Positions 28,371 through 31,372 of a DNA stretch of 47,404 bases are shown here, one piece after another. The stretch is from Escherichia coli (lineage in GTDB: Bacteria; Pseudomonadota; Gammaproteobacteria; Enterobacterales; Enterobacteriaceae): NCBI RefSeq assembly GCF_003334335.1, contig NZ_QOWQ01000035.1. One strand, 5' to 3'. A program made the translations under genes and the position numbers. Numbering within the stretch: position 1 is the first letter of the stretch; each line of letters starts with the position of its first letter. A model generated the notes under the pieces. The model was not told the origin of the DNA. It made no database searches and saw only the letters and a program-made list of their open reading frames with translations.

Positions 28371-29129
28371 ATGAGCCTGACCCTCACGCTCACCGGCACC
28401 GGCGGCGCACAGGGCGTTCCGGCATGGGGCTGCGAGTGTGCGGCCTGCGCCAGAGCGCGGCGCTCGCCGCAGTATCGCCGCCAACCGTGCAGCGGCGTAG
28501 TGAAGTTTAACGACGCAATCACCCTGATCGACGCCGGGCTGCACGATCTCGCCGATCGCTGGTCGCCCGGATCGTTCCAGCAGTTTTTGCTGACGCATTA
28601 TCATATGGATCACGTCCAGGGGCTGTTTCCGCTGCGCTGGGGCGTTGGCGATCCGATCCCGGTTTACGGCCCGCCGGATGAACAGGGCTGCGACGATCTG
28701 TTTAAACATCCGGGCCTGCTTGATTTCAGCCACACGGTGGAACCGTTTGTGGTGTTTGATTTGCAGGGGTTACAGGTCACGCCCCTGCCGCTCAACCACT
28801 CAAAACTGACCTTCGGTTATCTGCTGGAAACGGCACACAGCCGGGTGGCGTGGCTGTCTGACACCGCAGGCTTGCCGGAAAAAACGCTGAAATTTTTACG
28901 CAATAATCAGCCGCAGGTAATGGTGATGGATTGCAGTCACCCGCCGCGCGCGGATGCACCGCGTAATCACTGTGATTTAAATACCGTGCTTGCGCTGAAT
29001 CAGGTTATCCGCTCGCCACGGGTGATTCTGACCCATATCAGCCACCAGTTTGATGCGTGGCTGATGGAAAACGCACTACCGTCAGGGTTTGAGGTGGGGT
29101 TTGATGGGATGGAGATTGGGGTGGCGTGA
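28371..29129 (+). CDS. phnP: phosphoribosyl 1,2-cyclic phosphate phosphodiesterase PhnP (metallo-beta-lactamase fold)
   Basis: 252-aa ORF with HxHxDH motif ([10 protein letters not shown]). Confidence 0.93.
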
Positions 29130-29151
29130 TGAGAGGGAATGTGCGCGCTGG

Positions 29152-29252
29152 CCCCCTCACCCTAACCCTCTCCCCAGAGGGGCGAGGGGACCGATTGTGC
29201 TCGATATTGAATATTGCGCTCGTTTTCTCCCTCTCCCCATTGGGGTGAGGGG
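29152..29252. repeat. two GC-rich palindromic elements (ccctcaccc..ccctctcccc aga ggggcgagggg and ctccctctcccc att ggggtgagggg)
   Basis: Nested inverted repeats read directly; first copy shares an 18-bp core with the element at 2042-2069; sits between convergent phnP and yjdP. Confidence 0.6.
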
Positions 29253-29275
29253 CGATGCCTGCTCCATACCCAACC

Positions 29276-29605
29276 TCATCGCCCATACTCATCTTCCATT
29301 CTCCGCTCTTCATCCTCCAGTTGCCGACGCTCCTGATCAAGCTGGCGCTGGCGATCGTCCAGCTGCCTGCGGCGATCTTCAAACTGGCGGCGGCGGTCGT
29401 CATATTGTCTGCGCCGATCGTCGCTCACTTCACGCTGCCAGCCGTCGTCGCGCGAATCTTCATAGTCTCGCCCACGGTCAGGGTTATAAGCGTCATTAAT
29501 CGCCTGCTGAATATTGCCAATGGTGTCGTCGATAATATCGGCCTGGGCCGGAACGGTGGACAGCGTGAGCAGGGTGAATAAAAGAAATAGCGGAAAGCGT
29601 TTCAT
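29276..29605 (-). CDS. yjdP: small secreted protein YjdP with Arg/Asp/Gln/Glu-rich repeats
   Basis: 109-aa ORF with signal peptide (MKRFPLFLLFTLLTLSTVPAQA) and repeated DDRRRQ/EDRRRQ blocks. Confidence 0.88.
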   Translation of the reverse strand: MKRFPLFLLFTLLTLSTVPAQADIIDDTIGNIQQAINDAYNPDRGRDYEDSRDDGWQREVSDDRRRQYDDRRRQFEDRRRQLDDRQRQLDQERRQLEDEERRMEDEYGR

Positions 29606-29673
29606 TAGCCAACCTCAAAAAGAAACTCTATCCACATTAATCATTACTCATCCATGCAAGTAGTGGATGAATC

Positions 29674-30123
29674 TCAATTTCTCCGCTGCTCTATTGCCGT
29701 AATCGCCTCCACGCGTTGTTGATGACGACCGCCTTCGTACTGTGCGCCCAGCCACGCATCCACAATCATTTTTGCCAGTTCGAGGCCAACCACTCGTGAA
29801 CCAAAAGCCAGCACGTTGGTGTCGTTATGCTGCCGCGAAAGTTGCGCGGAATAAGGTTCGCTACAGACGACCGCGCGAATTCCGGCAAACTTGTTCGCCG
29901 CTATCGAAATACCGACGCCAGTACCACAAATCAAAATCCCGCCATCAACCTCTCCGCCAGCAACAGCCAGTGCGACTTGACTGGCGTAATGTGGATAATC
30001 AGTACGCTCTGACGACCAGGTTCCTTTATCAATCACTTCAACGCCACGCTCAACTAAATGTGCCACTATTTCATGTTTTAAAATGAAACCGACATGATCA
30101 CAGCCAAATGCAATCTTTTTCAT
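29674..30123 (-). CDS. rpiB: ribose-5-phosphate / allose-6-phosphate isomerase B
   Basis: 149-aa ORF MKKIAFGCDHVGFILKHEIV... (RpiB/LacAB family). Confidence 0.95.
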   Translation of the reverse strand: MKKIAFGCDHVGFILKHEIVAHLVERGVEVIDKGTWSSERTDYPHYASQVALAVAGGEVDGGILICGTGVGISIAANKFAGIRAVVCSEPYSAQLSRQHNDTNVLAFGSRVVGLELAKMIVDAWLGAQYEGGRHQQRVEAITAIEQRRN

Positions 30124-30481
30124 TCATCTTCCCCGTCCGTGCAAAACTTCACAATCAAAAAACATTTGTGATGTTAATGAATTAAAAACACCCAAAATCG
30201 ATGAATTACGCCTTCCTGATCTGTTTTACAGAGTTACATCTGACAGCGCAATAGCGTTAAAGACACTCACCATCCAGCAACATCTATCATCTAAAAAACC
30301 AGAAAAACAAATAACATCATGTTTTTAAACTAATTAAATGAAATAAAATTTTAAGCCACTCGCCATTGTTCACAATAAAATAAACTTTATAAATTTTATT
30401 TTTTTGTGAAGTCGCCAGCATCTTTTCTGTTCTTGCTGTGGTGATATAGTGGCGTCTTCAATTCAAGGACAAGAGAACGTG

Positions 30482-31372
30482 ATGAGCCAGTCAGAGTTTG
30501 ATTCAGCGCTTCCGAACGGTATAGGGTTAGCGCCTTACCTGCGAATGAAGCAGGAAGGAATGACAGAAAATGAAAGCCGCATCGTGGAGTGGTTACTCAA
30601 ACCCGGTAACCTGAGTTGTGCACCCGCAATTAAAGATGTCGCAGAAGCTCTGGCGGTATCTGAAGCGATGATAGTTAAGGTATCAAAGCTGCTGGGGTTT
30701 AGCGGCTTTCGTAACTTACGCAGTGCGCTGGAAGATTATTTTTCTCAGTCAGAACAGGTATTGCCTTCCGAGTTGGCTTTTGATGAAGCGCCGCAGGATG
30801 TGGTGAATAAGGTATTTAACATCACTTTACGCACCATTATGGAAGGTCAGTCGATCGTCAACGTTGATGAGATCCACCGTGCCGCCCGCTTTTTCTATCA
30901 GGCCAGACAGCGGGATTTGTACGGTGCCGGAGGATCAAATGCTATCTGTGCTGATGTACAGCACAAGTTCTTGCGCATTGGCGTACGCTGTCAGGCCTAT
31001 CCTGATGCTCACATCATGATGATGTCCGCTTCGTTGTTACAGGAAGGAGATGTTGTGCTGGTAGTGACCCATTCCGGGCGAACCAGTGATGTAAAAGCGG
31101 CCGTAGAACTGGCAAAAAAGAACGGGGCAAAGATTATTTGTATAACCCATAGCTACCATTCACCGATAGCGAAACTGGCCGATTATATTATTTGCTCACC
31201 AGCCCCGGAAACGCCGTTATTAGGTCGTAATGCCTCGGCAAGAATATTACAACTAACTTTGCTGGACGCTTTTTTTGTCTCTGTCGCCCAGCTCAACATT
31301 GAACAAGCTAATATTAATATGCAAAAAACCGGCGCAATTGTTGATTTCTTCTCACCAGGCGCGCTGAAATAA
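30482..31372 (+). CDS. rpiR: RpiR/AlsR transcriptional repressor (HTH plus SIS domain)
   Basis: 296-aa ORF from MSQSEFDSALPNG; divergent from rpiB, upstream of alsB. Confidence 0.92.
   Translation: MSQSEFDSALPNGIGLAPYLRMKQEGMTENESRIVEWLLKPGNLSCAPAIKDVAEALAVSEAMIVKVSKLLGFSGFRNLRSALEDYFSQSEQVLPSELAFDEAPQDVVNKVFNITLRTIMEGQSIVNVDEIHRAARFFYQARQRDLYGAGGSNAICADVQHKFLRIGVRCQAYPDAHIMMMSASLLQEGDVVLVVTHSGRTSDVKAAVELAKKNGAKIICITHSYHSPIAKLADYIICSPAPETPLLGRNASARILQLTLLDAFFVSVAQLNIEQANINMQKTGAIVDFFSPGALK

Follow-up and report, generated by a model that had tools for sequence, protein, structure and literature searches.

The window analysed here is a stretch of 47,404 nucleotides (nt) of an Escherichia coli genome (RefSeq assembly GCF_003334335.1, contig NZ_QOWQ01000035.1), and the gene in question, yjdP, is a 109-residue open reading frame (ORF) which runs from ATG to TGA on the minus strand at 29276..29605 in the program-made ORF list, exactly where a preliminary description made from the letters alone had placed and named it. 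The name is borne out by the region 29100-29700, which is identical to E. coli K-12 MG1655 over 601 of 601 nt, by the protein, which does not differ from b4487 in any of its 109 residues, and by a match to the NCBIfam equivalog NF041443 (“DDRRRQL_YjdP”) of 147.9 bits (cutoff 90) that covers profile positions 1-101 of 101. RefSeq names the product “DDRRRQL repeat protein YjdP”, and Pfam PF28054 is assigned (precomputed) to all homologues. The ORF is the already known and annotated yjdP, and its product is a member of a named family characterised by a signal peptide and DDRRRQL-type heptads, both present here and kept in 76 orthologues; neither NF041443 nor PF28054 carries an assigned function, as the preliminary description had also stated. 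In the literature searched, yjdP occurs only as an entry in gene lists and tables or as a landmark on maps, and no study of its function was found (the label also covers an unrelated rice designation). What is new at this locus is chiefly a conserved RcsB-like box at a conserved spacing from a -10 hexamer in front of yjdP, and in addition the positional nature of the link to the phn operon and a variation in heptad number between Escherichia alleles.

Our orthologue scan, with one genome per species, returned at least 79 related loci, all in Enterobacteriaceae, and one spurious Clostridium match; this restriction to the family holds among the matches listed and says nothing of other taxa. Within these, 76 intact ORFs of 101–116 residues share the same architecture across ca. 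25 genera, including Escherichia, Citrobacter, the Klebsiella oxytoca group, Raoultella, Enterobacter, Leclercia, Lelliottia, Kosakonia, Kluyvera, Buttiauxella, Cedecea, Yokenella, Atlantibacter, Trabulsiella, Pluralibacter, Phytobacter and Pseudocitrobacter. As the yjdP DNA is repetitive, GC-rich and open in several frames, and as no protein-level detection of YjdP was found in the literature searched, one might doubt that the ORF is a real translated gene, but the orthologues make a spurious ORF extremely unlikely. In the yjdP frame, entropy at the three codon positions of the orthologue alignment is 0.64/0.42/1.39 and the ratio of non-synonymous to synonymous substitution rates (dN/dS) against Escherichia and Citrobacter orthologues is 0.06-0.10, indels between alleles and species stay in frame, and the motif at the signal-peptide cleavage site is kept. 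By contrast, dN/dS is 0.98-1.93 in the frame of the antisense ORF 29255..29581, a frame which is most variable at codon position 1 and free of stops in only 11 of 76 orthologues. YjdP is a protein-coding gene under strong purifying selection, which at the protein level implies translation; the preliminary description had allowed that translation might prove undetectable or the repeat unconserved, but neither is borne out, the six heptads being kept in orthologues down to ~42% identity. The same description had noted one long antisense ORF at 29089-29581 as spurious. Spurious it is, but this span comprises two plus-strand ORFs in different frames, both non-coding by the codon-position and dN/dS tests, which are by-products of a codon set poor in TTA, CTA and TCA.

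We aligned the 160 nt upstream of all orthologues and found a single conserved block, A-TTGAGATTCCTCCGCTAC, which is present regardless of the upstream gene. The motif TG[AG]GA-N4-TC[CT] starts 70-75 nt before the ATG in all 77 loci, and in 75 of these the 14-nt box is followed by a TAnnnT hexamer at a distance of 23 nt, or of 24 nt in four loci; two more distant orthologues (46-48% identity) exhibit the same arrangement of box and -10. With the alignment anchored on the box, the top base has a mean frequency of 0.95 across the box and 0.79 across the hexamer, compared with 0.48 upstream and 0.53 in the spacer. The consensus of the RcsB homodimer box is TN(G/A)GAN4TC(T/C)NA (PMC7913699), and the yjdP box matches seven of the eight specified positions. 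Its geometry is identical to that of rprA, a promoter activated by RcsB only: the MG1655 rprA box TGAGACGAATCTGA occupies -49..-36 relative to the annotated 5' end of RprA, with exactly 23 nt between it and TACTAT, and both promoters combine a pseudo-palindromic box of 14 nt (TGAGA-N4-TC), a 23-nt spacer and a TAnnnT hexamer. The yjdP box departs from the consensus in its last position and remains a candidate RcsB site; given the putative start site, the box adjoins or overlaps the -35 region, as in RcsB-only activated promoters. We therefore propose, from this arrangement of motifs, that yjdP has its own RcsB-activated promoter. In a published RNA sequencing study of a LolCDE inhibitor, yjdP mRNA was up 9.5- and 10.6-fold, and osmB, bdm, wca, ivy, mliC, yjbEFGH and rcsA were co-induced (PMC5105897). 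The preliminary description had named phosphate and envelope stress as the conditions to which yjdP might respond, and of the two this induction, together with the conserved RcsB-like box, favours envelope stress.

In this genome the next gene upstream is rpiB (29674..30123, minus strand), which ends 68 nt before yjdP on the same strand, and a different account of yjdP expression would make it mainly the distal gene of an rpiB-yjdP operon, with a role in allose/ribose metabolism. Such an operon would fit the short gap, where rpiB is not followed by a U-tract terminator and a simple scan found no sigma-70 consensus promoter (the consensus promoter and terminator scan picked up nothing but the rpiB promoter and, within the coding sequence, chance hairpins), and rpiB is likewise the upstream gene in the Klebsiella oxytoca group, in Raoultella and in some Enterobacter loci. 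However, rpiB holds this position in only ~14 of 80 loci, whereas the box and -10 pair is conserved whatever the upstream gene, and a consensus scan would miss an activator-dependent promoter with a poor -35, making it unlikely in our view that yjdP is primarily an operon partner of rpiB. The hexamer TTGAGA was also considered as a sigma-70 -35 element and rejected, as it lies 32 nt from the conserved TAnnnT and not 17.

Several further observations concern the same short region. In E. coli (29648-29676 on the minus strand), the TGA stop codon of rpiB doubles as bases 1-3 of the RcsB-like box, and a 7-bp hairpin pairing TCATCCA at 29670-29664 with TGGATGA at 29654-29648 on the minus strand overlaps the right half of the box; this may be an rpiB 3' hairpin which shares sequence with the yjdP promoter. 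The 22-nt yjdP leader is unstructured (fold -4.1 kcal/mol, z=+1.1) and a scan of 28900-30500 against Rfam returned no RNA family. In most non-Escherichia orthologues (e.g. L023:3972-4003) the 5' leader contains a hairpin, (A)AGCCAG...CTGGCTT, with a GAGA ribosome-binding site just 5' of its 3' arm. When this hairpin was specified by hand, 82.9% of cells were paired, six of eight pairs had changed on both sides and none of 500 shuffles reached the covariation score; RNAalifold returned no consensus structure for the orthologue 5' leaders, and the hairpin is missing in E. coli and Citrobacter. Finally, a ChIP-seq (chromatin immunoprecipitation sequencing) peak of CsiR lies inside yjdP and yjdP mRNA was 3.5-fold lower after CsiR induction (PMC5217608), results which we regard as too weak to use for yjdP regulation.

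The product consists of a signal peptide (MKRFPLFLLFTLLTLSTVPAQA) followed, with the break before D23, by the mature part DIIDDTIGNIQQAINDAYNPDRGRDYEDSRDDGWQREVSDDRRRQYDDRRRQFEDRRRQLDDRQRQLDQERRQLEDEERRMEDEYGR. In a rule-based reading, the signal peptide comprises MKR, a hydrophobic core of 15 residues and PAQA, then D, and so has the basic n-region, hydrophobic h-region, small residues at -3 and -1 and lack of a lipobox cysteine expected of a Sec substrate of signal peptidase I. Orthologues likewise possess a basic n-region and an uncharged core of at least 11 residues, and in 75 of 75 the cleavage site has A or V at -3, A at -1 and D at +1. As cysteine is absent from the mature part of every orthologue sequence, YjdP is not a lipoprotein. 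From these features we infer a periplasmic location, in keeping with the secreted protein of the preliminary description.

The mature protein is built of three predicted parts. Directly after the signal peptide, residues 23-43 (ADIIDDxIGNIQQAIxDAYxPD) form the most invariant stretch of the Escherichia/Citrobacter alignment and are visibly conserved in wider alignments; the N-terminal helix has a hydrophobic moment of 0.52 compared with 0.21 ± 0.10 in shuffles (p=0.003), and AlphaFold2 places a helix at mature residues 3-18 with low confidence (predicted local distance difference test, pLDDT, ~55). An Asp-rich linker follows, differing in length and sequence between genera and constituting the variable, gap-rich zone of the orthologue alignment, with a predicted disordered stretch at mature residues 19-31 and pLDDT <50 at 21-30. 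The remainder is predicted by AlphaFold2, from an alignment of mature sequences, to be one helix over mature residues 32-86 at pLDDT 83-96, in line with the helical character that the preliminary description had expected.

This long helix carries the repeat. From residue 65 the sequence reads in sevens as RRQYDDR / RRQFEDR / RRQLDDR / QRQLDQE / RRQLEDE / ERRMEDE, which corresponds to a pattern h-[DE]-[DE]-R-[RQ]-R-Q where h is Y, F, L or M and the stripe comprises Y68, F75, L82, L89, L96 and M103. Identity at lag 7 is 0.574 compared with 0.168 ± 0.05 in shuffles, none of 20000 shuffles equalling it, and Tandem Repeats Finder reports a 21-nt period of 3.5 copies at 29350-29422. The six-residue i,i+7 hydrophobic stripe is present in 72 of 76 orthologues, with Y68, L89 and L96 invariant. 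Opposite charges are enriched at i+3 and i+4 (18 and 19, versus ~10.7 ± 2.4 in shuffles) and depleted at lags 1, 6 and 7, a spacing which fits a helix zipped by salt bridges. The preliminary description had called the protein almost entirely a run of Arg/Asp/Gln/Glu repeats; the 7-residue repeat is real and D/E/R/Q make up 80% of the C-terminal 54 residues (56-109), but residues 23-55 are not repeat and the share falls to 67% over the mature protein. That description also passed over the most conserved part of YjdP, the non-repeat amphipathic helix after the signal peptide.

The composition and length of the repeat show some peculiarities. Lysine is nearly avoided in the mature protein, with 0 Lys and 20 Arg at 29279-29539 and an orthologue mean per mature protein of 0.29 Lys versus 18.6 Arg (75 orthologues), and the first heptads favour Asp over Glu. 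In Escherichia the heptad number is polymorphic (29350-29422): alleles of 102 residues, with one heptad fewer, and of 109 residues are both common, an E. albertii allele of 123 residues has two heptads more than the 109-residue form, and rarer indels of 1-2 codons occur in the CGC-rich repeat of Escherichia homologues.

Long charged helices with a 7-residue periodicity recall Lpp, the streptococcal M protein and ER/K helices, all of which resemble YjdP in charge periodicity and in forming a long rod-like helix (a predicted one in YjdP). The YjdP heptads lack the pair of hydrophobic positions, a and d, of a canonical coiled coil: only one position per heptad is hydrophobic and a conserved Arg stands three residues further on, so that YjdP has one hydrophobic residue per heptad where a coiled coil has two (a and d) and a charged single alpha-helix (SAH, of the ER/K type) has none. 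Matches of YjdP to coiled coils in profile searches are weak. Because of this single hydrophobic position, the helix is, on its sequence, neither a canonical coiled coil nor a seamless SAH. It has been worth asking nonetheless whether the C-terminal region is a monomeric SAH, a purely stiff spacer holding the N-terminal motif at a fixed distance. The dense pattern of opposite charges, ~3 standard deviations above shuffles at i+3/i+4, is that of an SAH, the AlphaFold2 monomer is one uninterrupted high-confidence helix which gains nothing when two copies are tethered, heptad position d is Arg and not hydrophobic, and alleles with more or fewer heptads are tolerated. What an SAH would not lead one to expect is a strictly conserved hydrophobic residue in every heptad, which points to an interaction seam, nor a composition in which acids are mostly Asp and bases only Arg, SAH segments being typically Glu/Lys. 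We regard a simple spacer as possible but doubtful.

The features of the locus and the evidence for each are collected in Table 1.

Table 1 Features of the yjdP locus in window coordinates, with strand and the evidence on which each assignment is based.
Feature	Position	Strand	Evidence
yjdP coding sequence, 109 residues and stop	29276..29605	-	ORF list, identity to MG1655 b4487, NF041443 match, codon-position entropy, dN/dS
Signal peptide, residues 1-22 (MKRFPLFLLFTLLTLSTVPAQA), predicted cleavage before D23, no lipobox	29540..29605	-	rule-based reading of n-, h- and c-regions
N-terminal amphipathic helix (predicted), residues 23-40 (DIIDDTIGNIQQAINDAY)	29486..29539	-	conservation, hydrophobic moment, AlphaFold2 (low confidence)
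Acidic linker, predicted disordered, residues 41-55	29441..29485	-	AlphaFold2 pLDDT, gap-rich alignment
Long charged helix (predicted), residues 56-109, six heptads	29279..29440	-	heptad statistics, AlphaFold2, orthologue stripe, 21-nt DNA repeat
Shine-Dalgarno GAGG, 7 nt before ATG, in 22-nt leader	29613..29616	-	sequence reading
Putative -10 hexamer TAATGT, 23 nt after box; putative transcription start near 29627 (MG1655 ~4,313,846)	29634..29639	-	conserved TAnnnT spacing, rprA geometry
RcsB-box-like site TGAGATTCATCCAC	29663..29676	-	7/8 specified consensus positions, conserved in orthologues
Spurious antisense ORF, 108 residues	29255..29581	+	ORF list, codon-position and dN/dS tests
Second spurious antisense ORF, different frame from 29255..29581	29089..29499	+	ORF list
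Third spurious ORF, alternative frame on the yjdP strand	29038..29403	-	ORF list
Pair of G/C-rich dispersed repeats (“HPGQ” type) between the yjdP and phnP stops	29153..29252	.	repeat search, RNA fold, PMC5100583

Downstream, yjdP faces the phn operon, which lies on the opposite strand as the preliminary description had noted: phnP runs on the plus strand towards yjdP and stops at 29129. This arrangement is common, with phnP convergent downstream in 66 of 76 orthologous loci (median gap 69.5 nt); 12 loci, L002 and L089 among them, show a 4-nt overlap of the two stop codons, the overlap in L003 being with a phnH remnant instead of phnP. Where the stops overlap, the yjdP and phnP transcripts must overlap at their 3' ends because there is no room for terminators. 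The yjdP-phnP junction is moreover kept while the upstream neighbour varies, and on these grounds YjdP could be tied to the phn (carbon-phosphorus lyase) operon or to phosphate starvation, for instance as a periplasmic helper in phosphonate uptake, or the convergent transcripts could interact as antisense RNAs. Yet in eight loci (L003, L011, L019, L045, L051, L063, L074 and L080), among them an E. coli strain, Phytobacter, a Kosakonia species and Atlantibacter-like loci, all or part of the phn operon has been deleted whilst yjdP and its promoter are intact, the neighbour of yjdP there being yjdM/phnA or what is left of phnH. Enterobacteriaceae broadly keep their gene order in any case, and the orthologue alignment contains no conserved upstream elements beyond the RcsB-like box and the -10 hexamer. 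A scan for Pho boxes found no match near yjdP, a weak test as the promoter region of the phn operon was also unmatched. Lying on the opposite strand and retained where phn is deleted, yjdP does not behave as a member of the phn operon or, within the limits of that scan, of the Pho regulon, and we judge a functional tie decidedly improbable. Because yjdP is retained without phn, the link is positional: we conclude that the adjacency reflects inherited gene order and not functional coupling, although some overlap of transcripts at their 3' ends may occur.

The spacer between the two genes is itself distinctive. A “G-quadruplex-hairpin” (HPGQ) element is listed between yjdP and phnP (PMC5100583), and we find a direct repeat of this type, CCCTCTCCCC..GGGG.GAGGGG, with copies at 29166-29189 and 29229-29252, as well as inverted arms at 29153-29165 and 29240-29252. 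Folded as RNA, the spacer has z=-3.2. The pair is likely a 3' hairpin or a bidirectional stop. A 39-nt piece of the spacer also has matches at other places in E. coli genomes, and strains differ in this spacer, with matches that cover only 74-78% of the query.

Our best reading of YjdP is that of an Rcs-induced periplasmic helical rod. Damage to the outer membrane, to lipoproteins or to peptidoglycan would be sensed by the Rcs phosphorelay and lead to phosphorylated RcsB (RcsB~P), a dimer of which would bind the box, centred near -42.5 and overlapping a poor -35, 23 nt before the TAnnnT -10 as at rprA. There RcsB would recruit RNA polymerase to the yjdP promoter, a step suggested by the promoter sequence and by one transcriptome. 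The 22-nt leader and GAGG would permit translation, the 22-residue signal peptide would direct the product to Sec, and signal peptidase I would free a predicted soluble, acidic periplasmic protein of 87 residues and net charge -8. In this protein, the invariant amphipathic N-terminal helix is probably a docking surface, and the variable Asp-rich linker would give flexibility between the two helices. The second helix, of ~55 residues (~8 nm), would be stiffened by salt bridges at i/i+3 and i/i+4 between Asp/Glu and Arg, with one conserved Leu, Tyr, Phe or Met per heptad, and the resulting hydrophobic stripe, one residue wide, is most likely a seam for self-association or for binding a partner. 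We conjecture that YjdP works by binding, as a structural or protective rod, a self-associating element or a binding adaptor in the stressed envelope.

Small envelope proteins offer a general precedent for such a product. YjdP resembles CpxP and Spy (Cpx/Bae regulons) and Ivy, MliC, YpeC and YmgD (Rcs response) in that it is small, mostly helical by prediction and, to judge from its signal peptide, Sec-exported, and in that its mRNA is strongly up with envelope damage; no homology to CpxP, Spy or Ivy was detected, and YjdP has no significant Pfam match to any family, that of CpxP and Spy (LTXXQ) included, and no similarity to solved structures.

A number of results weigh against this account. 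The final A of the RcsB consensus is always C or G in yjdP orthologues, leaving no strict match among 77, and one match to the pattern carries no significance by itself (four in the window versus 12.9 expected), for which reason the case for an RcsB box rests on conservation and spacing. In the literature searched we found no RcsB ChIP, delta-rcsB or start-site data for yjdP, and the response to the LolCDE inhibitor has been credited to Rcs, Cpx and sigma-S, with no regulon given to yjdP by the authors (PMC5105897). For the protein, an AlphaFold2 model of two copies tethered by a Gly/Ser linker reached a predicted template modelling score (pTM) of 0.46, a value which has no clear reading in the absence of coordinates, and a helix pLDDT of 78-92, which is not above that of the monomer. 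Any biochemical role is guesswork, as searches of Pfam, the Protein Data Bank (PDB) and Foldseek returned no sequence or structural relative of known function: Pfam-A gave no domain at E<=0.001 (best DUF7900, i-Evalue 0.048), a PDB sequence profile search gave no solved-structure relative (best match M protein, E=0.018) and Foldseek of the monomer and tethered-dimer models against the PDB gave nothing usable. With these points taken into account, a genuine yjdP with its own RcsB-activated promoter, encoding an exported three-part helical rod in the stressed envelope, remains on balance the probable explanation of the locus as a whole.

A bolder version of this would see in YjdP a core periplasmic arm of the Rcs response of Enterobacteriaceae, whose N-terminal helix docks on IgaA, RcsF or an outer-membrane or peptidoglycan-associated protein, and whose Arg/Asp rod acts as a ruler or feedback modulator. 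CpxP feeds back on CpxA, and by analogy could serve as the model for a feedback modulator; we know of no Rcs counterpart to this feedback. We offer the idea as speculation with little likelihood of being right.

The gene yjdP is therefore not news in itself, as RefSeq, NCBIfam and Pfam already name it for its repeat. The promoter signature kept in every orthologue, however, directs the search for a phenotype to RcsB and envelope damage, and the phn neighbourhood can be put aside when looking for the function of YjdP. Within the protein, the natural targets for mutation or crosslinking are the conserved N-terminal helix and the Leu stripe. If YjdP is truly an Rcs effector or feedback element, it would be a conserved periplasmic player in a stress pathway that bears on tolerance of antibiotics and antimicrobial peptides.

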